Positions 1,084 through 31,299 of a DNA stretch of 32,000 nt are shown here, piece by piece. The stretch comes from Caldimicrobium thiodismutans (GTDB lineage Bacteria; Desulfobacterota; Thermodesulfobacteria; Thermodesulfobacteriales; Thermodesulfobacteriaceae). The translations under genes were made by a program, and so were the position numbers. The notes under the pieces are model-generated. The model did not search any database. It saw nothing but the letters and a program-made list of their open reading frames with translations, and had not been told where the DNA came from. The first letter of the stretch is position 1, and every line of letters starts with the position of its first letter. The stretch is taken from contig NZ_AP014945.1 in the NCBI RefSeq assembly GCF_001548275.1, positions 60,001 to 92,000 of the forward strand. Direction: 5' to 3'.

Positions 1084-2357
1084 AGGTTCTTGTTCTTGGT
1101 TCCGGTGGGAGGGAACACGCCCTCTGCTATGTCCTTGCCAGGAGTTCTCTTCTTAAAAAGTTATACTGCCTTCCTGGGAATGGAGGAATTTCTGAGATAG
1201 CTGAGATTCCTCAAGGGCTTACGCTTACAGATTTTGAGGGAATTAAAGAGTTTTGCCTCAAAGAGAAGATAGATCTTGTTATCCCCGGTCCTGAAGACCC
1301 CCTTGTAAGAGGAATACGGGATTATCTGCAAAGAGAAAATATTTCAGTCTTTGGTCCAGATAAGTATACAGCTCAACTTGAGGGTAGTAAGGCCTTTGCT
1401 AAAGGGATCATGGAAAAGGCGGGTGTTCCAACAGCAGATTTTAAAGTCTTTGAGGATTACAATGAAGCTTTAGAATATCTTAGGAAAAAAGGGGCTCCTG
1501 TGGTTATTAAAGCAGATGGACTTTGTGCTGGAAAAGGTGTCTTTGTCTGTGATACAGAAGCTGAAGCTAAATCTGCCCTTGAAAAAATTTTCATTGAAAG
1601 GATTTTTGGAGAAGCAGGCTCAAAAGTAGTTATAGAGGATAAATTGGAAGGGGAAGAGGCCTCCTATATTGTCATAACAGATGGAGAGAATTTTAAGGCC
1701 CTACCTACCTCGCAGGATCATAAAAGACTGCTTGATAATGATGAAGGGCCAAATACAGGTGGAATGGGTGCTTATTCACCAGCTCCTTTAATTAATGAAG
1801 ATTTGAGAAAAAAGATTGAGGAGAGAGTTATTGCACCAGTCCTACGGGTTTTAAAAGAAGAGGGACATCCCTATCTCGGCTTTCTTTATGCTGGGCTTAT
1901 GATCTCCAAGGGTGAACCCTATGTGCTTGAATTTAACTGTCGCCTTGGAGACCCAGAAACCCAGGCTATTCTGCCAAGAATTGAGGGAGATTTTCTTGAA
2001 CTTATTCAGATTGCCTTAGAGGGTAAATTATCATCTTATAACCCTAAAGAAATTGACAAGGCCTGTGTTTGTGTAGTAGTTGCAAGCAAAGGATATCCTG
2101 GAAGTTATGAAAAAGGTAAGGTAATTACTGGCTTAGAGAGAGTGAAGAATATGGCAGATATCATGGTTTTTCATGCAGGCACAAAAAAGGAGGGAGACAC
2201 CTTTTATACTAATGGGGGAAGAGTCTTTGGTGTGACAGCTCTTGGGAATACAATCTCTCAAGCTATTCAAAGAGCATATGAAGCAGTAAACCTGATTCAC
2301 TTTGAGGGAGCTTACTACAGAAAAGATATTGGTAAAAAGGCTGAAAAATATCTTTAG
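1080..2357 (+). CDS. purD: Phosphoribosylamine-glycine ligase (GAR synthetase)
   Basis: 425 aa. N-terminus [18 protein letters not shown]-grasp core ([18 protein letters not shown]) and C-terminal GGRVFGVTA are all classic PurD signatures. Confidence 0.95.
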
Positions 2358-2866
2358 GTCTCTTTATTTAGGTATTCTTTATACCCCTCTTTACTTAATT
2401 TTTTACCCTTTTCAAGCACCATCTCCTTGAGTTTAGTCCTGTAATTTTTTAATTTTGCTCTTAGTTCAGGATATTTTATAGCCAAAATTTGAATAGCTAA
2501 AAGGCCTGCATTTTTGGCATTATTTATAGCAACAGTTGCCACAGGGATACCTGCTGGCATCTGGACAATAGATAAAAGTGAATCAAGGCCTTTTAAGGCC
2601 TTAGTCATAATAGGAACTCCTATCACAGGAAGTGTAGTGAGAGAGGCAGTCATACCTGGTAGGTGAGCTGATCCTCCTGCACCTGCAATAATAACCTCAA
2701 TTCCTCTATCTTCAGCTGTTTTTGCATACTCATACATAAAATCAGGAGTTCTGTGGGCAGAAACTATGGTTATTTCGTAGGGGACTTCAAATTCTTCAAG
2801 GACTTCAGCTGCCTCTTTCATAACCGGCAAATCAGAATCACTTCCCATAATAATTCCTACCATCAT
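2354..2866 (-). CDS. purE: N5-carboxyaminoimidazole ribonucleotide mutase
   Basis: 170 aa. Motifs [16 protein letters not shown] and [10 protein letters not shown] (class I PurE). Start overlaps the purK stop. Confidence 0.95.
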
Positions 2867-3993
2867 CTTTGTCTCTCTCCTTTTATTTTGAGGATTTTTT
2901 TCACCTCTTTAGCCTTAGCTAAGGCCTCTTCAAGAGTATCTGCAAGTATGGTAACATGTCCCATTTTCCTCAAGGGGAAGGTCTCTTTTTTTCCATAGAT
3001 GTGGACAGAGACCCCGGGTAAAGACATAGCCTTTTCAAGTCCTTCATAAAGAGGTTTCCCATAATATCCTTCTTCACCTAAAAGATTTATCATCACTGCA
3101 GGGGATAGAAGTTTTGTTGATCCAAGAGGGAGTCCTGTGATAACCCGAATGTGTTGTTCAAATTGACTTGTATAACAGGCTTCTATAGTATGATGTCCTG
3201 AATTATGAGGCCTTGGTGCAATTTCATTTACATAAAGTTTCCCTTTTTTATCCAGAAAGAGTTCCACTCCAAAGAGTCCAAAGCCATTAATGGCCTTTAC
3301 CGCTTCTATGGCAAGTTCCTTGGCCTCTTTCTCAATAACTGGTTCAATCTTAGCTGGACAAAAAAGATATTCAAGAAGATTTCCCTCGGGATGAAAGACC
3401 ATCTCAACCACATCGTAAACAGCAAGTTCTCCATTTTCACTCCTGACTACCATAACTCCCAATTCTTTTTCAATATCTAAGTATTCCTCAACAAAAGATG
3501 GACAGGGAAGGGCTTTAGGGAGGTCTTCTTCACTTCTAAGGATTGCCGTTCCCCGGCCGTCATATCCTCCTGTAATAGATTTTTGCACGCAGGGCAAAAG
3601 GGCCTTTAAGTCTTTTGGACTTTTGATTTCTATAAATTTTGGAATAGGCAGACCAGCTCTCTGGTAAGCCTTTCTTTGTTCAAGTTTGTTTTGGATTAGT
3701 AAGAGAACCCTTGGGCGTGGGACTACCCTTTTTTCTGGAAGAAGTTCAAATAGAGGGGCAACTTCAACATGTTCTATATCAAAGGTAATAATATTACAGT
3801 CCTTAGCAAAATTTTTGATATCATCAGGATCTTTAAAAGAACCTACAATCTGTTGAGCTACAGCACTTGCAGGACATTCAGGAGAAGGGTCAAGAACTTT
3901 TACAGTAAAACCGAGTTTTCTTGCAGATTGAGAGGACATCTTTGCAAGCTGCCCCCCACCAAGAATTCCAATGACTACATCTTGGGGATTCAT
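2863..3993 (-). CDS. purK: N5-carboxyaminoimidazole ribonucleotide synthase
   Basis: 376 aa ATP-grasp protein. N-terminal [11 protein letters not shown] and GGYDGRG. Sits upstream of and overlaps purE. Confidence 0.9.
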
Positions 3994-4017
3994 CTTGCAC
4001 CTCTTTTTTTTCTCCTA

Positions 4018-4077
4018 AAATTACATCAATTCATGTGAGAAGTCAATTATTTGTATGCGTCCATATTTTTGAGACTC
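4018..4077 (-). promoter_or_regulatory. Conserved upstream box plus sigma70-type promoter of purK-purE
   Basis: Minus strand reads GAGTCTCAAAAATATGGACGCATACA (4077-4052), then -35 TTGACT (4046-4041), 17-nt spacer, -10 TAATTT (4023-4018). SD AGAGGTG precedes the ATG at 3993. Confidence 0.65.
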
Positions 4078-13947: not shown

Positions 13948-15627
13948 ATGACTAAAAAGCTTAATGGTAAAAATAAATTTCTTTTCATTGTTGAATCACC
14001 AAGTAAGATTAAGACTTTAAGTAAAATTCTAAATAATTCAGGGCATTCCTTTCTTTTTTTAGCTACCTTTGGACATATTAAGGATCTTCCAATAAAAAGT
14101 ATGGGAATAAATCCCCATACCTTTGACCCCTATCTTGAAGTTCTTAATTCTAAAAGAGCTGTTTTATCTAAATTAAAAAAACTTCTCTCTTCAGTAAATA
14201 AAATTTACATTGCAACTGACCCAGACCGCGAAGGTGAGGCTATTGGATATCATCTTCTTGAATATATTCAGAAAAACCAACCTTTTCCTTTAGAAATTAA
14301 ACGCATTGAGCTTAGAGAAATTACTGAAATTGGTATCAAAAATGCCTTTAATAACTTAAGAGATATTGATGAAAATCTTTACACTGCCTGGAAAGCAAGA
14401 AGAGTGCTTGATAGACTTATTGGCTATAAAGTATCCCCCTTTTTATCCAAAAATTTTAAAAAGGCCCTTTCTGCTGGAAGGGTTCAAAGTCCTGCTCTAA
14501 GACTTATTACAGAGAGGGAAAAGGAAATCGAAACCTTTAGACCAGAAAAGAGCTATTCTCTTATGGTGATAGCAGAGTCTTCTTCAGGAGAGTGCTTTGA
14601 AATTGAACTTTTCTCAAAAAAAGAATTACTTAAAACTAAAAACTCAGAAGGATTATTAGAAATTTTTAAAGAATATCTTGAAGGAAAAGAGATAGAGCTT
14701 TCTTCTATTAAAGATAAAACCTTGAAAAAATATCCGCCTCAACCTTTAAAGACAAGCACTTTGATTGAAGTTGCTGGCAAATTTTTGGGGCTTTCTCCTA
14801 AGGAGACCATGAAGATAGCTCAGACCCTTTATGAAGAAGGATACATAACTTACATGAGAACAGATTCAACAAGGGTAAGTCCTTTGGCTAAGAAGGAGGC
14901 TAAAGCTTATATTGAGAGGCTTTTTGGGAAAGAATATGTGGGAGGTGAGAGAAAGGTTAAGTTATCAGCCCATGCCCAGGATGCTCACGAATGCATAAGA
15001 CCAACTCAAATCCTGAGACAAACACCTCCTATAGGGAAAAGGGAAAGAGCCCTCTATGAACTCATAAAAAGGATTTTTCTTGCCTCACAGATGAGGGAGG
15101 CTATTTATGCGGAGAGAATGTATGTGTTTAAAAATGCATATCTTCCAAAGGATCTCAAACTTATTCTAAAAAGGCAAAAGTTGGTTTTTGATGGATATTT
15201 ACTTCTCCTTGGCAGGGAAGAAAAAGAAGATAAAGATTTTCCAGACCTAAGAGAGGGTGACCTCTTAAAAATAAAAGGTTATAAAATCAAAGAGCATATC
15301 ACTAAGCCACCTGAGAGATATACTCCTCAATCTCTAATTAAAAAATTGGAGGCCCTTGGTATTGGCAGACCTTCAACTTATGCAAGCATGCTTGATATTC
15401 TTTTCACAAGAGGTTATATAGAAGAAGAGGGAAGGTATCTTAAACCAACAGAGCTTGGCAGAAGGGTTTGTGAATTTTTAGAAAGGGTAACCCCACTTTT
15501 TATGGATTATCAATTTACTGCTAACCTGGAAAAAGCCCTTGATGAAATAGCGGAGGAAAAGAGAAGTTATTATTCTACAGTTAAAGAAGTCTTTGAAATC
15601 TTAGAGGGTTATCTTTCAAAAAGATGA
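13948..15627 (+). CDS. topA: Type IA DNA topoisomerase, core only (no C-terminal zinc-ribbon region)
   Basis: 559 aa. Toprim motifs FIVESPSK and TDPDREGEAI, SAGRVQSPALRLI, and active-site Tyr context EGYITYMRTDS. Ends right after the conserved core. Stop overlaps the cbiL start (ATGA). Confidence 0.88.
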   Translation: MTKKLNGKNKFLFIVESPSKIKTLSKILNNSGHSFLFLATFGHIKDLPIKSMGINPHTFDPYLEVLNSKRAVLSKLKKLLSSVNKIYIATDPDREGEAIGYHLLEYIQKNQPFPLEIKRIELREITEIGIKNAFNNLRDIDENLYTAWKARRVLDRLIGYKVSPFLSKNFKKALSAGRVQSPALRLITEREKEIETFRPEKSYSLMVIAESSSGECFEIELFSKKELLKTKNSEGLLEIFKEYLEGKEIELSSIKDKTLKKYPPQPLKTSTLIEVAGKFLGLSPKETMKIAQTLYEEGYITYMRTDSTRVSPLAKKEAKAYIERLFGKEYVGGERKVKLSAHAQDAHECIRPTQILRQTPPIGKRERALYELIKRIFLASQMREAIYAERMYVFKNAYLPKDLKLILKRQKLVFDGYLLLLGREEKEDKDFPDLREGDLLKIKGYKIKEHITKPPERYTPQSLIKKLEALGIGRPSTYASMLDILFTRGYIEEEGRYLKPTELGRRVCEFLERVTPLFMDYQFTANLEKALDEIAEEKRSYYSTVKEVFEILEGYLSKR

Positions 15628-16301
15628 AGCTTTATGTAATTGGAGTTGGCCCAGGGGATCCTGAATTAATAACCCTTAAGGGTTTAAAAATTTTAAAAGA
15701 CTGTCCCCTCCTTTTTTATCCTACAGGAGGAAGGGAGACCCTTGCCTTATCAGTCATTGAAAAGGTTGTTTCCCTTAAAGACAAAAGGCTTATTGAGCTT
15801 TATTTTCCTATGCAGAAGATTGATGAGCTTTACAATCACTGGGAAGAACTTGCCCAAAGAGTTAGTTCTGCACTTTCTGAGTCAAAAATAGGGGCTTTTA
15901 TCACCCTTGGAGACCCTGCTTTTTATTCCACCTTTTTTTACCTTAAGCCCTTTCTTGAAAAAAGTGGAATTGAAATGGAAATTATCCCGGGAATAAGTTC
16001 TTTTTCTGGATTTTCAGCTAAGCTCAAAATCCCCCTGTCCCTTAATAAAGAAGAAGTTGTAATAACCAATGCAGATACTTTTTTAAAAAGCCTTTCAAAT
16101 TATCTTATCTTTGATACCATAGTTTTGCTGAAAACCCATCGGTATTTGAAAGAGATAAAGGAATTTTCAAAAAAGCATGCATATATGGGATTGGTTGGCA
16201 AGAGAGTAGGGCAGGACTTGGAAAAGATATGGTATAATCTGGATGAGGTTGAGGAAAATGAGCTTGATTACTTTACCTTGGTGGTTTTGAAAAAACTATG
16301 A
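15624..16301 (+). CDS. cbiL: Cobalt-precorrin-2 C20-methyltransferase
   Basis: 225 aa tetrapyrrole methylase (YVIGVGPGDPELITLKG). The FYPTGGRETLALSVIEKV block resembles the CbiL/CobI pattern. Operon context supports the call. Confidence 0.8.
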   Translation: MKLYVIGVGPGDPELITLKGLKILKDCPLLFYPTGGRETLALSVIEKVVSLKDKRLIELYFPMQKIDELYNHWEELAQRVSSALSESKIGAFITLGDPAFYSTFFYLKPFLEKSGIEMEIIPGISSFSGFSAKLKIPLSLNKEEVVITNADTFLKSLSNYLIFDTIVLLKTHRYLKEIKEFSKKHAYMGLVGKRVGQDLEKIWYNLDEVEENELDYFTLVVLKKL

Positions 16302-17047
16302 AAAAGGTATATTTTATTGGAATTGGTCCAGGAGATCCCGAGCTTTTAACCCTCAAGGCCCTGAGAGTAATAAAAGAGGTAGATCTTATCATCTATCCCG
16401 GAAGCCTCATAAGTGAGGAAATGTCTTCCTTTTTAAGAAAGGAGAATGTAAAAGCCGAGTTTTATAATGCCTTTGGAAAGCCTCTTGAGGAGATTATTGC
16501 AAAGATAAAGGAATATCTTGAGCAAAATAAGGTTGTTGCAAGGCTTGTGAGCGGAGACCCTGCCCTCTATAGTTCTATAATGGAACATATTGAGGTTTTA
16601 AGAGATGAGGGCATTACTTATGAAATAATTCCCGGGATTTCATCAGGTTTTATGGCATCTGCTCGCTTAGGAATTGAGTTTACCTATCCGGAACTTTCAA
16701 ATTCTGTTGTTTTTACAAGGCTTTCTGGAAAAACAGGTGGCGCAACTGAAGAGGAAATTCTTACATTAGCCAAAACTAAATCCACTCTTGTTTTTTTTCT
16801 TAGCTCAGGCCTTGCAGAAAAACTCTCCACCCTTTTGCTTAAAGTCTATAACCCTGAAACACAAGTTGCTATTCTTTATAAGTTATCGCGAAAGGATGAA
16901 AAAATTATTCTAACTACCCTTTCTCAACTGGCAGGAACCATGCTTAAAGAAGGTATAACCAGAACAGCTCTTATTGTTGTAGGAGATGTTTTAAAACTTA
17001 TGGATAAAAATTTTCACAAAAGATCAATTCTTTATGGAAAAAAATAA
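16298..17047 (+). CDS. cbiF: Cobalt-precorrin-4 C11-methyltransferase
   Basis: 249 aa. VYFIGIGPGDPELLTLKA, IIYPGSLI, RLVSGDPALYSS and IIPGISS are typical of CbiF/CobM. Confidence 0.85.
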   Translation: MKKVYFIGIGPGDPELLTLKALRVIKEVDLIIYPGSLISEEMSSFLRKENVKAEFYNAFGKPLEEIIAKIKEYLEQNKVVARLVSGDPALYSSIMEHIEVLRDEGITYEIIPGISSGFMASARLGIEFTYPELSNSVVFTRLSGKTGGATEEEILTLAKTKSTLVFFLSSGLAEKLSTLLLKVYNPETQVAILYKLSRKDEKIILTTLSQLAGTMLKEGITRTALIVVGDVLKLMDKNFHKRSILYGKK

Positions 17048-18788
17048 AGAATTTATCATTTTCTATCTTTCAGAAGAAGGAAAGGCTTTGGCGGAAAGAA
17101 TTAGTGTTTTTCTGGAAAAGGCAGAGATTTACAAGTTTGATCGAGAGACAAAGAGGGATATTAAAAGGCATTTTAAGCCTGAAAAGGTCCTTATTTTTAT
17201 TATGGCCCTTGGGATTGTAGCCAGGGTCTGTGCAGGATTTATAAAAAATAAAGACCATGATCCTGGAATTATTGTCATAGATGAAACAGGAAACAATGTT
17301 ATTGCCTATCTGGGAGGGCATTATGCCGATATCAATAGAATTACCCTTGAGATAGCAAGTTTTTTAGAAGCTCATCCTGTGATCACCACAGCTTCAGACA
17401 ATAGGGGATTACCCCCCCTGGATAACTGGATTAAAGAACTTGGATTTTTTATTAAAAATAAAGATCAACTATATGTGATAATGTCAAAATTTAATGAAAA
17501 AGGAAATCTTAAGGTCTATCTTGAAGAGGGATTGAATTATCCCCTTTCTTCAAAACTTGAGAGAGTTTCTACCCCTGAAGAGGCAGATATTGTGGTGTCC
17601 TATAAAAAACAAGAACTGGAAAACAAATTAATTCTTATTCCCCGATGTCTTTATGCAGGGATTGGGTTCCATGAGATTTTAACTGAGGAAGATTTTGAGG
17701 AGCTTTTAAAGAGGACTTTTGAAGAGCTTTCACTTGAGTTTAAAGCCTTAAAGGGAATTGCAACCCTTGATAAAAAGGCAGAGTATTTACCCCTTAAAAA
17801 CTTTGTCTTAAGGGAGGGGTTAGATCTTAATGGTTTTAGAAAAGATGAGCTTTCAGAGGTTGAGGTTATTTCTCCATCCCAATCAGCCAAAAAGGCCCTT
17901 GGAATTGAGAGTGTATCTGAGGCCTGTGCTCTTTTGGTGTCTAAAGGGGTCTTACTTTATCCAAAAAGGATTTATAAAGATTTTACTATAGCTCTTGCAC
18001 TCAAGCCTTTTCAAAAGGTTGGGAAACTTTATGTGGTGGGAATTGGTCCCGGTTCAAGAGATTATTTAACTCTTAAGGCATTAAGAGTCCTAACCAATGT
18101 TTCAGCGGTTGTAGGTTATAAAAGCTATATCAAACAGATTTTACCTCTTATTAAAACCAAAGAGGTCTATGATTTTTCTATGACTCAAGAGATTGATAGG
18201 GTCAAGAAGGCTATTGAGCTTGCTTTAGCAGGAAAAGATACCGCCTTAGTAAGTGGTGGGGATCCCGGGATTTACGGAATGTCTGGTCTTGTGCTGGAGA
18301 TATTGCATAAAAATAAGTTCAGCCTTGAGGTAGAGATCATACCGGGAATTTCTGCTTTAAACATGGGAAATGCCCTTCTTGGGGCTCCTCTTGGTAATGA
18401 CTTTGCTGTGATAAGCCTTTCTGATAGACTTACCCCCTGGGAAGTTATTGAAGAGCGTTTAAAAAGACTTTCGGAAATAGAAATTCCCCTTGTAATTTAC
18501 AATCCAAGGAGCAAGGGAAGAAAAATTCAATTTGAGAGGGCTCTCCAAATTTTAAGGGAAAATAAATCTCCGAATACAGCAGTTGCTATTGTAAATTCTG
18601 CATCAAGAGAAGGTGAGGAAATCATTTTCTCAACTCTTGAAAAACTCTCTTCAGAAAAAATAGGAATGAATAGTCTTATAATTGTGGGAAGTAAATATAC
18701 CCAATTTTTGGGCAAATTTTTGATAGCCAAGAGGGGATATGAGAGGAAATACGGAGGAAAATATGAAATCAGCTCTCCTTATCTCTGA
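17034..18788 (+). CDS. cbiGH: CbiG-CbiH fusion: cobalt-precorrin-5A hydrolase plus cobalt-precorrin-3B C17-methyltransferase
   Basis: 584 aa. The N-terminal ~330 aa is CbiG-like. The C-terminal ~250 aa is a tetrapyrrole methylase starting KLYVVGIGPGSRDYLTLKA..VVGYKSY, typical of CbiH. Confidence 0.8.
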   Translation: MEKNKEFIIFYLSEEGKALAERISVFLEKAEIYKFDRETKRDIKRHFKPEKVLIFIMALGIVARVCAGFIKNKDHDPGIIVIDETGNNVIAYLGGHYADINRITLEIASFLEAHPVITTASDNRGLPPLDNWIKELGFFIKNKDQLYVIMSKFNEKGNLKVYLEEGLNYPLSSKLERVSTPEEADIVVSYKKQELENKLILIPRCLYAGIGFHEILTEEDFEELLKRTFEELSLEFKALKGIATLDKKAEYLPLKNFVLREGLDLNGFRKDELSEVEVISPSQSAKKALGIESVSEACALLVSKGVLLYPKRIYKDFTIALALKPFQKVGKLYVVGIGPGSRDYLTLKALRVLTNVSAVVGYKSYIKQILPLIKTKEVYDFSMTQEIDRVKKAIELALAGKDTALVSGGDPGIYGMSGLVLEILHKNKFSLEVEIIPGISALNMGNALLGAPLGNDFAVISLSDRLTPWEVIEERLKRLSEIEIPLVIYNPRSKGRKIQFERALQILRENKSPNTAVAIVNSASREGEEIIFSTLEKLSSEKIGMNSLIIVGSKYTQFLGKFLIAKRGYERKYGGKYEISSPYL

Positions 18789-19950
18789 TTCTCATCTTTG
18801 GGGGCTTTGGACTTACAGAGCTTTAAAAAAGGTTAATCTTGATTTTGATCCAATTCTTTCTGAAGAAATTGATGAAACCTTTTTATCAAAATATAAAGGC
18901 CTTTTTGTTCCGGGGGGATGGTCTAAAAATAAATTTGAGGGTTTAACAGAAAACCAAAGGGAACTTTTAAAGGAATTTGTCAAAGCTGGGGGAATTTTTA
19001 TTGGAATTTGTGGTGGAGCAAGTTTGGCAGGACAGGAGGGCTTAGGGATAGCAAGTGTTAAAAGGAATTCAAAGCGTGTTCCAAGCTACAGCGGGCCTTG
19101 TAAAATAGAATTTGAGAGGAGCCATCCTTTCTTTGAAAAAGTTAAACCTAATTTATTCCTCTGGTTTCCTCCAGAACTTGATATTCTGTCTCAAAATGTA
19201 AAGATATTAGCAACTTTTAGTGCCCCTGATAAAGATGCTTATGTATCTGACTTATGTCTTGATGATCATAGAGAGCATTTGGAATTTTTTGAAAATATAT
19301 ATGGAATTCGTTTAAATCCTGATTTTATGAGGAAAAAACCCTTAATTTTAGAAGAATCCTTCGGAAAAGGAAAAATTCTATTATCTCTTATTCATTTTGA
19401 TACGCCTAATTGTAAAAATGGACATCAATTTCTTAAAAATCTTATTGAATACTATAAGTTCTCAATAAATCCTAAAGCTTTTAAACTCATCACACGCAAG
19501 ACCCTACTTCAGAGAAAATTCAAAAAACAGCTTGATACCTGTTATAACAATGCTCTTGAGGTTTTAAATTTTGGTCTAAGAAATTTTCTATTTCACAAAA
19601 GATACCCCTTTTTTTATCAATGGAAAAGAGGAATAAGGGGCCTTGAACTACTTAATTTAATTTATCTCTTTGAGGAAATCGTATTTTTACTTCACCATAT
19701 AGAACTTGGTAAGGAGACCCTTGATTTTTTTAATGAAATCTGTCAATCTGCTGAGGAAATGATAAAAAAAGTTTTGGTCGCTTTAAAATATGATTATTTA
19801 CAATATAGAGGTATAAAAATCAAAAATACCGAGGCACTTTTTGAGGAAGTTTTTGGAAATAACAAGAAAAGTTATGGTGGATTATATAAAATGATCATCA
19901 ATATTCTTGAAAGAGTTTTAGTAAAACTCTGGAGAGAAGCTTATAGATGA
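18763..19950 (+). CDS. Uncharacterised protein: N-terminal class I glutamine-amidotransferase-like (BPL_N-type) domain plus C-terminal helical domain
   Basis: Start moved to the ATG at 18763 (GGAGG at 18753-18757), rather than the track start at 18739. The block LFVPGGWS...GGIFIGICGGASLAG looks like a GATase1 nucleophile elbow. The ~170-aa C-terminal part is not recognised. Overlaps the cbiGH stop and the cobU start. Confidence 0.6.
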   Translation: MKSALLISDSHLWGLWTYRALKKVNLDFDPILSEEIDETFLSKYKGLFVPGGWSKNKFEGLTENQRELLKEFVKAGGIFIGICGGASLAGQEGLGIASVKRNSKRVPSYSGPCKIEFERSHPFFEKVKPNLFLWFPPELDILSQNVKILATFSAPDKDAYVSDLCLDDHREHLEFFENIYGIRLNPDFMRKKPLILEESFGKGKILLSLIHFDTPNCKNGHQFLKNLIEYYKFSINPKAFKLITRKTLLQRKFKKQLDTCYNNALEVLNFGLRNFLFHKRYPFFYQWKRGIRGLELLNLIYLFEEIVFLLHHIELGKETLDFFNEICQSAEEMIKKVLVALKYDYLQYRGIKIKNTEALFEEVFGNNKKSYGGLYKMIINILERVLVKLWREAYR

Positions 19951-20495
19951 TAACCTTTGTGCTTGGTGGTGCAAAGTCTGGAAAAACAAGATGGTCCCTG
20001 AGATATGCTGAAGACTTAACAGGTTTTAAAAACTATTATTACCTTGCTACTGCAGAGGCTCATGATGAGGAGATGCAAGAAAAAATAGAGCTACATAAAA
20101 AGGAGCGATCCGCCTTCTGGAAGACAATTGAAGAGCCTATAAATATTAGTTCTTATTTAGAGAGATTAAAAGACACATCTTCTGTGATACTTCTTGATTG
20201 CCTTACCCTTTGGGTTTCAAATCTTATACATTACAGGAAGAGTTTTGAAGAGGAGATTAAAATTTTTATAGAAATTCTTGAGAAATATAAGGGGCATGAA
20301 AGGGACTGGATAATTTTAGTGTCCAATGAGGTGGGGTTGGGAATAGTTCCTGAAGGAAAGCTTGCCCGAGAATTCAGGGAAAAAGCTGGTCTTCTAAATC
20401 AGAAAATTGCAGAAATCTCAGATGAGGTCTATTTTATTGTAGCAGGGCTTCCCCTTTTATTAAAACAAAAGGGTTTTACAGGGTCTATGATTTAA
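19947..20495 (+). CDS. cobU: Adenosylcobinamide kinase / adenosylcobinamide-phosphate guanylyltransferase
   Basis: 182 aa. P-loop VLGGAKSGKT at the N-terminus and NEVGLGIVP block; CobU/CobP family. Confidence 0.88.
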   Translation: MITFVLGGAKSGKTRWSLRYAEDLTGFKNYYYLATAEAHDEEMQEKIELHKKERSAFWKTIEEPINISSYLERLKDTSSVILLDCLTLWVSNLIHYRKSFEEEIKIFIEILEKYKGHERDWIILVSNEVGLGIVPEGKLAREFREKAGLLNQKIAEISDEVYFIVAGLPLLLKQKGFTGSMI

Positions 20496-21731: not shown

Positions 21732-22475
21732 TTATCTTTCAGGTTTTAAAAGATAAATTTCCATAAGATAGCCTTTATTTTTTTTAAGCTCTTTTCTAAG
21801 ATTTTTAATTTCCTCAGAGATATCTTTTAAAGTGCCACTTTTAAAGATTTCTTCTTTCCCTCCCACATAGGCTCCCCAGTAAATCTTAAGGGGCTGATCT
21901 TTAAAGAGACTAAAGGTTTCATAGTTGTCAAGAAAAACCACGACTGGATGTTTAATTTCCTTTGCGTTTCTTAGGCTTCTGGGGGTATGCAAGGTTAAAG
22001 GAGTAGCAAGATCTGTTAGAGAGACCTTCATTTTTGCACCAAGCACCTGAAAAGAGGAAAGACCTGGTATCACCTCAAAAGAGAGCTTCATTTCTTCTGC
22101 AATTTCATGAAGAATATCAAGGTGTCCATCATAGAGAGTAGGGTCTCCCCAGATTAAAAAACCTACCTCCTCTTCCTGAATATGCAAAAGAGCTTCCCTC
22201 AAAATCTCAGCCTTTTCTTTTCGCCACTCCTTTACTTTTTCCCTATAGTTTATGCCTCTTTTCCTTTCTGGAAAAGGAAGATATATACATTGATAAGTTT
22301 TTCCCCCTTTTACAACCTCAAGAATTTCAATTCTTTTCTTGGTAAGCTCCTCTTTTTTACCTTTCTTTTCAGGGATGAGAAAAAGATTGAGTTTTTCAAT
22401 AAGACTTTTAGCTTCAAGAGTTAGATATTTGGGATCTCCAGGACCGATCCCGATTAGATAGAGTTTTTTAAGCAT
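21732..22475 (-). CDS. cobF: CobF-like tetrapyrrole methyltransferase (precorrin-6A synthase family)
   Basis: 247 aa. LYLIGIGPGDPKYLT, IPEKKGKKEELTKKRIEIL, IWGDPTLYD, IYWGAYVGGKEEIFKSG and GYLMEIYLLK parallel the CobF-specific blocks as I recall them, rather than those of CbiD or SUMT. Confidence 0.7.
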   Translation of the reverse strand: MLKKLYLIGIGPGDPKYLTLEAKSLIEKLNLFLIPEKKGKKEELTKKRIEILEVVKGGKTYQCIYLPFPERKRGINYREKVKEWRKEKAEILREALLHIQEEEVGFLIWGDPTLYDGHLDILHEIAEEMKLSFEVIPGLSSFQVLGAKMKVSLTDLATPLTLHTPRSLRNAKEIKHPVVVFLDNYETFSLFKDQPLKIYWGAYVGGKEEIFKSGTLKDISEEIKNLRKELKKNKGYLMEIYLLKPER

Positions 22476-22493: not shown

Positions 22494-23453
22494 TTATTGA
22501 GAAAGCCTCAAGAGGGCATTAATCACAGCTGAGCAGGCTGGACTCCCTCCCTTTCTACTCAAATTGGTAATAAAAGGAAAGTTCTGTGTTGAGAGAAGAA
22601 GCTTGGATTCAAGGGCTTTAACAAAGCCTACCGGCATTCCAATGACCACAATATCTTTAATATTATATTTGTTTAATATTTCAACTGCTTTTATAAGGGC
22701 AGTTGGAGAGTTCCCAATAGCTATTATTCCGAGATTTTTTTCCCTTTCAAGGGCAAGTTCTATGGCTTTTTCTGTGCGAGTGCCCTCTTCAGGCTCTTCA
22801 GTAATCTCAGAAAGATAAGATAAAACTTGATTTCCCTTAAGTAATTTCTTTGAAATACCTGCTTTAACCATCTCTACATCCACAAGAATATCCTTTCCCA
22901 TTTTAAGATTTTTTATAGCCAAAGGGATAGCTTCTTCATGAAAGACCATAGTATACTTAAATTCAGGATCCGCTGTGGCATGAATAACTCTTTTGATAAT
23001 CACCTTTTCCTCTTCTGAAAAAGAGCTTAAATCCACCTCCTTTTCTATAATTTCAAAGCTTTTTATTTCAATGGCAGAGCCACTTTTTATACCCAGTTCT
23101 TCAATTCGTTCTTTTACAATCTCAGCAAGCTTTTCGTGAACACCAAGGGGTCTGGTATAAAGGATTTCAACCTCAGGATACATTTTCTTAGCTTCTTCAA
23201 GAATCTCTGGAATATCCTTACTGACATGAAGTCCAGAACTTAAAAAAAAGGGGTGCACAATAATTTTATAAGTTCCTTCACGAATGTAATCTTCAAGAGC
23301 GGATTTTATATCGGGTTGTCCAAATTGAAGAAAGGCAATTTTAAAATCATCACGGGGTCTTTGAAAGACTCCTGAAAGAAGATTTAAAAAACTATCCCAG
23401 TAATTAGCCTCCTTCTTTGGACTTCCGTGAAGCACAAGAAGAATCTTTTCCAT
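22494..23453 (-). CDS. cbiXC: CbiX(small)-CbiC fusion: sirohydrochlorin cobaltochelatase plus cobalt-precorrin-8 methylmutase
   Basis: 319 aa. The N-terminal ~125 aa has LLVLHGS and HPFFLSSGLHVSKDIP (CbiX-S). The C-terminal ~195 aa has RVIHATADPEF and IIAIGNSPTAL (CbiC/CobH). Confidence 0.8.
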   Translation of the reverse strand: MEKILLVLHGSPKKEANYWDSFLNLLSGVFQRPRDDFKIAFLQFGQPDIKSALEDYIREGTYKIIVHPFFLSSGLHVSKDIPEILEEAKKMYPEVEILYTRPLGVHEKLAEIVKERIEELGIKSGSAIEIKSFEIIEKEVDLSSFSEEEKVIIKRVIHATADPEFKYTMVFHEEAIPLAIKNLKMGKDILVDVEMVKAGISKKLLKGNQVLSYLSEITEEPEEGTRTEKAIELALEREKNLGIIAIGNSPTALIKAVEILNKYNIKDIVVIGMPVGFVKALESKLLLSTQNFPFITNLSRKGGSPACSAVINALLRLSQ

Positions 23454-23755: not shown

Positions 23756-25066
23756 TTATAGTTGACTCCTTGAAGGATTTTTTTCTTCAGTTGCAAGAAA
23801 GTGAAGATAAGTTGCCAGAGCATTTTTATAACGATATCCCTCAAGAAATCTCTCTTTCTCGTGAGTTGAAACCTTAAAGATTTTCTTAATTTTTGAGGTC
23901 TTAAGAGGCGCTTTTAGATGAGAGTAGTGAAATTCATGGGCATAAAAACCTTTTATGTCTCCTAAGAAAGGATGAGTTTCAAGAATTGAGACCCTTCTAT
24001 ATCCAAGGGTCAAGCCTTTTTTCTCAATTTCATAAGGGAAGACCCCTGAAAGGTGATAAAATCTCTTATTCCAATAGATTCCTTTAGAAAGATAAATAAG
24101 GCCACCACATTCTGCATAAAGGGGATTTCCCTCCTCAACAAAGGCCTTCAACTCCTTTATAAAGGTTTGGTTTTCGCAAAGTTCCTGGGCAAAAAGTTCA
24201 GGATATCCTCCTCCAAAATAGAGGGCCTCAACTTGCGAGGGAAGTCCTTTATCCCTAAGGGGACTAAAAAAAAGTAGCTCACTTTTTGTAGAGAGCTCAT
24301 CAAGAAGATGTTGATAATAAAAATTGAAAGCAATGTCCTTTGCAAGGCCAACTTTTTTAAATGGAAGGGGAGGTAAAAAGGAGGGTAGAGGATAACCCTC
24401 AAAAGATGGGTTTTCAAAAGTTTGAAGCAGGGACAAATCAAAGGAAATTTCAAGGGCACCTGCAACTTCTGAAATAAGGGCTTCTGCCTCCTTAAAATGT
24501 TCAGGAAGAAAGAGTCCAAGATGCCTTGAAGGAAGCTCATATTCTTTATTCCTGAAAAGATAACCAATAACTGGATATCTCTTTAAAGCCTTCTCCAATC
24601 TTAAAAGATGTTTTTCTGAAGAGACTCTGTTTAAAAAAAGAAAAAAAGGTAAAGAGGCTCTTTTAATTTTCTCTGCAAACCCTTTGACCACAAAGGTAAG
24701 ACTTTCTGCTAAACCATAGGTATCTAAGATCAGGATAATGGGAAGTTTAACAAGTCTTGCTACCTTAAAGGTAGAATACTTTCCATCAAAAAGCCCCATT
24801 ACTCCTTCAACTACAGAGTAAATACACCCTTTACTTTTATGATAAAAGAGGCCTTTAAGTCTTTTTTCTCCCATGGAAAAGAGATCAAGATTATAAGAGG
24901 GTCTCCCGCAAGCAAGAGCATGCCACTTAGGATCAATATAATCTGGCCCGATCTTAAAGGGTTGAACCTTAAATCCCTTTTTAGATAAAAGATGTAAAAT
25001 CCCAAGGGTAATAAGGGTTTTTCCCTCTCCACTTCTTGTTGCAGAAATTACAAAGCCTTTAGCCAT
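23756..25066 (-). CDS. cbiA: Cobyrinate a,c-diamide synthase
   Basis: 436 aa. N-terminal ATRSGEGKTLITLG nucleotide-binding loop and C-terminal GATase block LYAECGGLIYL. Confidence 0.9.
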   Translation of the reverse strand: MAKGFVISATRSGEGKTLITLGILHLLSKKGFKVQPFKIGPDYIDPKWHALACGRPSYNLDLFSMGEKRLKGLFYHKSKGCIYSVVEGVMGLFDGKYSTFKVARLVKLPIILILDTYGLAESLTFVVKGFAEKIKRASLPFFLFLNRVSSEKHLLRLEKALKRYPVIGYLFRNKEYELPSRHLGLFLPEHFKEAEALISEVAGALEISFDLSLLQTFENPSFEGYPLPSFLPPLPFKKVGLAKDIAFNFYYQHLLDELSTKSELLFFSPLRDKGLPSQVEALYFGGGYPELFAQELCENQTFIKELKAFVEEGNPLYAECGGLIYLSKGIYWNKRFYHLSGVFPYEIEKKGLTLGYRRVSILETHPFLGDIKGFYAHEFHYSHLKAPLKTSKIKKIFKVSTHEKERFLEGYRYKNALATYLHFLATEEKNPSRSQL

Positions 25067-30978: not shown

Positions 30979-31299
30979 TTAAAAGTTTGAAGGATATATT
31001 CTGCTATTTTTTTTGGCCTCTTCATCAGGAATATAATTGTCCCCAAATTTCGGCATACCAGGCCCAGGGTTTCGCATTTTACTAATTATATCTTCAGGAG
31101 TTTTAATATTGTTGGCGTCAAGATCCTTTTTATGTAAAGTCTTGCTACGATTAATAATATTTCCTCCATTGGGATGACAAATAGCACAATGTTCCCTAAA
31201 TAGGACCTCCCCTGTTTTTCCTTTTAATGGTTCTCCAGAAAAGGCTAAAATAGAAGGGAAGCTTATACTTATGGCTAAACTTATGATAATTTTTTTCAT
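30979..31299 (-). CDS. Monoheme class I c-type cytochrome (secreted)
   Basis: 106 aa. N-terminal signal-like MKKIIISLAISISFPSILA, a single CAICH haem-binding motif, and a distal Met context (PGPGMPKF). Confidence 0.8.
   Translation of the reverse strand: MKKIIISLAISISFPSILAFSGEPLKGKTGEVLFREHCAICHPNGGNIINRSKTLHKKDLDANNIKTPEDIISKMRNPGPGMPKFGDNYIPDEEAKKNSRIYPSNF

Follow-up and report, generated by a model that had tools for sequence, protein, structure and literature searches.

Gene X, which lies in a cobalamin (cbi) operon of Caldimicrobium thiodismutans, belongs to a family that is undescribed inside the known class I glutamine amidotransferase (GATase)-like superfamily. It probably has a tetrapyrrole role of some kind, and the reading that we tentatively favor is that it is an amidase stripping the DsrN-installed acetamide from sirohydrochlorin-type tetrapyrroles. 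The observed fold, triad conservation, neighborhood, fusions and distribution of gene X call for a hydrolase with three properties: its importance should be greatest where one cell has both DsrAB/DsrN and corrin ring synthesis, it should belong with the cbiL-cbiF-cbiGH steps, and it should be able to serve some purpose in the absence of B12 synthesis. A deamidase fits all three.

Gene X and its operon

The window (the whole stretch of 32,000 nucleotides analyzed here) comes from a genome that is 100% complete and consists of a single 1.81-Mb contig. Gene X (18763..19950, plus strand) encodes 395 amino acid residues from an ATG start with GGAGG 5 nt ahead of it; an alternative in-frame ATG at 18739 would give a 403-residue product. 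Its 5' end shares 26 nt with the cbiG-cbiH fusion and its 3' end shares 4 nt (ATGA) with cobU, in agreement with the open reading frame and the two overlaps described in the initial annotation, and translational coupling is predicted from these overlaps only. The plus-strand order is topA-cbiL-cbiF-cbiGH-X-cobU. It includes cbiL for the C20 methyltransferase (15624..16301), a gene for a CbiF-like C11 methyltransferase (16298..17047, with a best match to TIGR01465 that is below the cut-off of this model), the cbiG-cbiH fusion (17034..18788), which is the conserved neighbor 5' of gene X, and cobU (19947..20495), which adjoins gene X mainly in Thermodesulfobacteriaceae. An opposite run on the minus strand, cobT-cobS-cobQ-cbiB-cobD-cbiA-cbiXC-cobF-cbiET, contains cobF for the C1 methyltransferase (21732..22475; 224 bits with TIGR02434, cut-off 195.8) and cbiA with its own GATase domain (23756..25066), which is separate from the DsrN of the same genome (G000 C1:591773-593155). 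The only RNA family found in the window was a tRNA, with no B12 riboswitch, and promoter and terminator matches in the window were at chance level.

The nearest homologues of gene X, from Caldimicrobium MAGs, are 75-77% identical to it. A profile search returned 212 family representatives at E < 1e-30, and the family is single-copy and found in Desulfobacterota and Nitrospirota. In the ESM Atlas it appears as "hypothetical" clusters, mostly from Thermodesulfobacteriota.

Fold and predicted catalytic triad

The AlphaFold model of gene X (pLDDT 95) comprises a class I GATase-fold domain (residues ~1-238) followed by a four-helix bundle with a beta-hairpin (residues ~244-395). The first domain has a flavodoxin-like alpha/beta/alpha fold with a nucleophile elbow, and Foldseek matched the protein to the class I GATase-like fold with an E-value of 2.6e-9. 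Residues 1-238 resemble class I glutaminase subunits, namely Pdx2 (Z 20.4), HisH (Z 20.2) and PurQ (Z 19.5); the comparison with 2abw_A (Z 20.4) gave an rmsd of 2.7 over 188 aligned residues. The structural search with the C-terminal domain yielded only generic bundles from unrelated helical proteins (best Z 9.9, rmsd 3.7).

All of the motifs originally pointed out are present: FVPGGWS, GGIFIGICGGASLAG with Cys83, LSLIHFD with His211 and Asp213, and FHKRYPFFYQWKRGIRGLELLNL. We followed them through two alignments of homologues, A1 (n=101) and A2 (n=83, distant members). The nucleophile-elbow cysteine, Cys83 (19009..19011, plus strand), is conserved in 101/101 and 83/83 sequences, respectively. 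The remainder of the predicted triad is His211-x-Asp213 (19393..19401, plus strand), where His211 does not vary in either A1 or A2 and position 213 is occupied by Asp or Glu throughout, with Glu in 61 of the 83 distant members. Gene X thus has the conserved Cys and His-x-Glu/Asp of the class I GATase-like superfamily, and because these positions are so constrained its predicted triad looks intact. Other strongly conserved residues are K57, R101, R105, W134, P136 and D163, and in the C-terminal domain R280, W287 and G293. A conserved R280...W287-R-R-G element on the hairpin of this domain (19600..19647, plus strand) is a candidate carboxylate- or substrate-binding element. The initial annotation had proposed a GATase fold with its Cys and His and an unfamiliar helical C-terminal part, and had suggested AlphaFold modeling with Foldseek as a check; the model, the structural matches and residue conservation bear both proposals out. 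Its remark that no synthetase domain is attached was also confirmed.

Relationship to known families

Gene X shares the fold of class I GATase subunits (PdxT/Pdx2, HisH, PurQ, GuaA) over residues 1-235 and, likewise, their conserved Cys-His-Glu/Asp triad. However, it is only 10-21% identical to them, scores far under the NCBIfam cut-offs and carries an added helical domain of 150 residues, and a synthase partner for it was not found. A sequence search of the PDB gave weak DJ-1/PdxT matches only, and literature searches found no description of the family. Its architecture has no characterized counterpart that could be found among the structures and literature searched.

The suggested likeness to the BPL_N type holds in part. 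The Pfam model BPL_N (PF09825) matched gene X above its cut-off (25.3 vs 24.2 bits), but the match is marginal and restricted to the elbow segment (residues 39-89, 51 of 283 model positions), where the two are alike over PGG...GICGG. Homologues of gene X are automatically labeled "BPL-N domain" in databases. Unlike what this label implies, gene X lacks a biotin-ligase domain, and no linkage to biotin genes was seen in the loci examined. Membership in the biotin ligases was rejected, as neither gene X nor nine long homologues had a ligase match in Pfam and the C-terminal domain is a helical bundle. Several hundred proteins carry the label "biotin-protein ligase N-terminal", which is misleading and which our results correct.

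The GATase_3 domains (CbiA, CobQ, DsrN, GatD) belong to the same superfamily and the same pathway neighborhood as gene X, and one natural DsrN-X fusion links it to DsrN; the score with GATase_3 (PF07685) is nevertheless 20.6 against a cut-off of 27. Unlike CbiA, CobQ and DsrN, which are encoded in this genome by genes of their own, gene X has no ATP-binding synthase domain. An amide synthase of their type was rejected on the lack of a PF01656 (P-loop synthase) match and the subthreshold PF07685 score. Similarly, a DJ-1/PfpI deglycase was rejected, with 20.2 vs 26.6 bits for PF01965 and 17.6 vs 139 bits for TIGR01382. CbiJ/CobK takes the operon position after cbiH that gene X has here, and no genome in our samples has both, but the fold and predicted chemistry of gene X are unrelated to it and no PF02571 match was obtained, so membership in that family was also rejected.

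Linkage to cbi genes and natural fusions

We surveyed the neighborhoods of 80 genome loci representing the closest relatives, mostly from Nitrospirota and Thermodesulfobacteriaceae. Among the 75 of these loci whose sequence extends far enough, 55 have cbiH directly 5' of gene X, as do 56 of 67 metagenome loci. A survey of this kind had been recommended from the outset, and it revealed a consistent link to cbi genes. As for the cbi/cob setting as a whole, the upstream cbiH is conserved but cobU is present at only 10 of the 80 loci. According to the tree, adjacency to cbiH may be one ancestral arrangement common to Nitrospirota and Thermodesulfobacteriaceae. A complex prediction for gene X with CbiH scored 0.00, which counts neither for nor against an interaction.

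Within the family to which the window belongs, 16 of the 26 CbiC-bearing genomes have gene X, vs none of the 11 that lack CbiC. The family genomes with the CbiL type of the window are precisely the 16 with gene X, and in nine X-negative relatives CbiL is of another type. The X-negative relatives examined have the ring genes and neither gene X nor CbiJ, therefore gene X is not universally required.

Fusions of gene X were found with CbiH (P0123), with CbiG-CbiH (P0266), with CobA (P0068 and P0127) and with DsrN (P0141). The last of these, a single MAG sequence, is 960 residues long; its N-terminal part falls within the DsrN clade in the tree and keeps the GATase_3 domain. A fusion to an unrelated CofD-family protein was also found.

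The close adjacency and fusion to cbiG/cbiH, together with the co-segregation with one cbiL-cbiF-cbiGH module in 16/16 family genomes, could also mean that gene X is an ester or lactone hydrolase of ring contraction, opening the ring-A lactone or, together with CbiG or CobF, freeing the two-carbon fragment. A Cys-His-acid triad would suit ester hydrolysis. We nonetheless regard this as improbable: CbiG is already encoded beside gene X, gene X accompanies CbiD in some cases and CobF in others, its restriction to genomes with dsrB is left unexplained, and it is kept in genomes without CbiH, CbiC or CbiL, including a closed genome that is 99% complete.

Alternatively, gene X might be a glutaminase acting in trans, its ammonia being used by a tetrapyrrole amide synthase (DsrN, CbiA, CobQ) or in an unrecognized amidation, in the manner of PdxT or HisH. 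Its top structural matches are stand-alone glutaminase subunits, most distant members have H-x-E, and the DsrN-X fusion and adjacency to dsrN point to a suitable recipient. Against this, CbiA and CobQ are both present here with GATase domains of their own, as initially noted, and their glutaminase Cys/His motifs look intact; furthermore, the DsrN part of P0141 retains its GATase_3 domain, and the conserved neighbor is cbiH, which needs no nitrogen. We consider such a role rather unlikely.

Distribution with dsr genes

Presence of gene X was recorded in 251 Desulfobacterota and 121 Nitrospirota genomes (372 in all), which are related, so that the counts are not independent. dsrB is present in every one of the 33 carriers from Desulfobacterota and in 30 of the 31 from Nitrospirota (63/64 overall), and gene X was present in one of 175 dsrB-negative genomes. 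Among Nitrospirota with dsrB, 29 of the 39 CbiC-positive genomes have gene X, vs 1 of the 28 CbiC-negative ones; none of 22 dsrB-negative, CbiC-positive Nitrospirota has it. The correlation with dsrB is largely lineage-level.

CbiH is missing from nine of the 33 Desulfobacterota carriers. Five of these nine were tested further: CbiC is absent from all five and CobS from two. Of the tested carriers without ring synthesis, 5/5 have a CbiA/DsrN-type gene, assigned to DsrN where it was included in the tree, and 4/4 have AhbD. In two of the nine CbiH-less carriers (G071 and G163) gene X adjoins dsrN, and dsr genes are near gene X at 18 of the 80 surveyed loci. Gene X is not purely a B12 gene, because nearly all carriers have dsrB, more than a quarter of those in Desulfobacterota lack CbiH, and several have it beside dsrN or other dsr genes. 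Confinement to dsrB-bearing genomes, retention without corrin ring synthesis and the link to dsrN all go beyond the initial annotation.

In Desulfovibrio-, Desulfarculaceae- and Syntrophobacter-like genomes gene X has no cbi or dsr genes next to it. In the Desulfovibrio-like genomes it is divergent from valS, which in several cases is followed by a cobA/hemD fusion. That neighborhoods vary outside two clades, that the gene X tree looks vertical, that weak DJ-1/PfpI matches were obtained, and that one fusion involves a CofD-family protein would all suit a function unrelated to tetrapyrroles, for instance as a general amidase, as a deglycase or as a peptidase in sulfate reducers, the gene having been captured once beside cbiH. 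This is unlikely, though it deserves more weight than the two roles considered above; gene X was lost along with ring synthesis in two clades, is fused to three different tetrapyrrole enzymes, and its divergent partner in the Desulfovibrio-like genomes is the valS-cobA/hemD unit.

A possible deamidase at the sirohydrochlorin branch point

Siroamide, heme and corrinoids in sulfate reducers come from one precursor. The amide of siroamide is reportedly on the ring-A C2 acetate (Matthews 1995). DsrN amidates siroheme (PMC10504309). CfbB, a protein related to DsrN, converts the acetates on rings A and B of a metal-sirohydrochlorin to amides (PMC7242693). CbiH makes the ring-A lactone and AhbC takes off the ring A/B acetates (PMC7242693).

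The preferred reading places gene X, as a putative stand-alone Cys-His-Asp/Glu amide hydrolase, where the pathways of sulfite reducers diverge from sirohydrochlorin. DsrN, a CbiA paralogue, amidates an acetate side chain of siroheme for the sulfite reductase DsrAB and might also mis-amidate cobalt intermediates. The ring-A/B acetates would be needed as free acids both for the CbiH lactone in B12 synthesis and for AhbC removal in heme synthesis, and an amide at these positions would be expected to block both routes. Cys83 would then attack the side-chain amide, forming a thioester with release of ammonia and leaving the free acid, and the helical C-terminal domain may aid tetrapyrrole binding. 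Deamidation would let ring contraction by CbiH or heme synthesis by AhbC go ahead, and reversal of DsrN amidation would thereby help to divide the supply of sirohydrochlorin between the siroamide, B12 and heme routes. What speaks most strongly against this reading is the absence of gene X from 41 of the 65 Desulfobacterota with both dsrB and CbiH; therefore the conflict would need another solution in most sulfate reducers.

We found no description in the literature of how amidated and free-acid pools are separated in sulfate reducers. The gene X family, which is single-copy, has an intact-looking triad and is linked to CbiH as well as DsrN, offers a concrete candidate for keeping these pools apart. 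There is a somewhat less than even chance that gene X represents a proof-reading deamidase for modified tetrapyrroles, the first of its kind, or, less likely, a CbiJ stand-in. Homologues exist in Desulfovibrio-like genomes, therefore a knockout is feasible, and it would also bear on the 20-year-old gap of the missing CbiJ.

Missing B12 steps

The initial annotation listed several pathway steps without a gene and suggested that gene X is an accessory or substitute function. The list holds for the cluster only; the genome does have CobF, a CobA adenosyltransferase (G000 C1:243718) and a histidine-phosphatase-family gene (PF00300, C1:1044139) with a putative phosphatase role. CbiJ and CbiD were not found in the complete genome; CobF fills the C1-methylation step and so accounts for the absence of CbiD, and CbiJ is the only listed gene without a counterpart. 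An accessory function is plausible, and the substitute idea is weakly supported for cbiJ and unsupported for cbiD, cobA and the phosphatase.

The CbiJ gap is already known in delta-proteobacteria (PMC545781), and gene X could conceivably be a non-orthologous replacement of this cobalt-precorrin-6A reductase. Gene X and CbiJ occur in 64 vs 16 of the 372 genomes with no overlap, an exclusion that is confounded by possible whole-operon replacement, since the CbiJ-positive Nitrospirota operons are built differently. Of 39 dsrB- and CbiC-positive Nitrospirota, the five with CbiJ all lack gene X and lie in three separate places of the dsrB tree among X-positive relatives, and CbiJ directly follows cbiH, in the slot of gene X, in 10 Desulfobacterota with both CbiJ and CbiH. 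On the other hand, a hydrolase triad is ill-suited to reduction, nothing points to a binding site for a nucleotide or a flavin, and gene X persists without ring synthesis. Neither gene is present in 78 of 112 CbiH-positive Desulfobacterota or in 22 dsrB-negative, CbiC-positive Nitrospirota, and no other gene takes the slot in the genomes examined that lack both. A distant gene X homologue was not found in five such CbiH-positive genomes. The 78 genomes without both genes and the nine CbiH-less carriers do not agree with the distribution expected of a functional analogue of CbiJ, which should accompany ring synthesis wherever CbiJ is lacking and be absent elsewhere, and replacement of CbiJ by gene X seems quite improbable.

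The other substitutions were rejected more simply. For CbiD, CobF is encoded in the window and gene X lies beside CbiD in 27 of 80 loci. For the phosphatase, the fold of gene X is wrong and the PF00300 gene exists. For the adenosyltransferase, CobA is encoded elsewhere in the genome and the X-CobA fusions keep both parts.

Distribution of X and CbiJ

In the Desulfobacterota sample (251 genomes), CbiJ, the cobalt-precorrin-6A reductase, was found in only 10 of the 112 CbiH-positive genomes, and 78 of the 112 had neither CbiJ nor X, the gene for the protein with a class I glutamine amidotransferase fold; thus, the gap in precorrin-6 reduction remains across most of this phylum. Both X and cbiJ are also absent from close relatives with the gene order cbiXC-cbiD-cbiET-cbiF-cbiGH (loci L287-L293; genomes G394, G395, G396 and G399), which carry a different cbiL, located elsewhere, and provide a natural set for comparison. 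Two genomes nested among X-positive Nitrospirota (G374, locus L203, and G326, locus L207) have cbiJ inside cob operons of different organization, which suggests that the operon was replaced there via transfer.

Genomic context of X

The GC content of X (window 18763-19950) is 32%, compared with 35-37% for its operon neighbors. The topA gene (window 13948-15627) overlaps cbiL and is the first gene of the cbiL-cbiF-cbiGH-X-cobU run in five Caldimicrobium-like loci. A CofD/UPF0052-family domain is joined to X in one metagenome sequence (L200, positions 1772-4063), followed by a GT9 glycosyltransferase gene.

CobF, fusions and recurrent ORFs in cobalamin loci

CobF, usually assigned to the aerobic route, is encoded at window 21732-22475 and replaces CbiD in the early-cobalt (CbiX, CbiG) pathway of this anaerobe. 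Among the 80 related loci bearing X homologs, CbiD is present in 27 and CobF in 10. The CbiX-CbiC fusion (window 22494-23453), which matches the known model PRK05782 slightly below its cut-off, has counterparts in many Nitrospirota and Thermodesulfobacteriaceae. One Nitrospirota clade (L204-L206; G356, G335 and G320) encodes a CbiG-CbiJ fusion of ~510-530 amino acid residues, followed by cbiF, cbiH and cobU. CbiH-CobQ fusions of ~770-800 residues occur in some Desulfobacterota (L265, L269, L271).

Several Nitrospirota cbi operons (L020, L029, L040, L045, L051, L054, L069, L079) contain or adjoin a conserved ORF (cluster c35), frequently directly ahead of cbiD, whose product is presumably similar to radical SAM enzymes. 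Another conserved Nitrospirota ORF (~260 residues, HD-like motif; L029, L032, L040, L045, L046, L054, L063, L068, L069) recurs between cbiL and cbiF. On the minus strand of the window, a small c-type cytochrome with a CAICH motif is encoded upstream of cobT (30979-31299).
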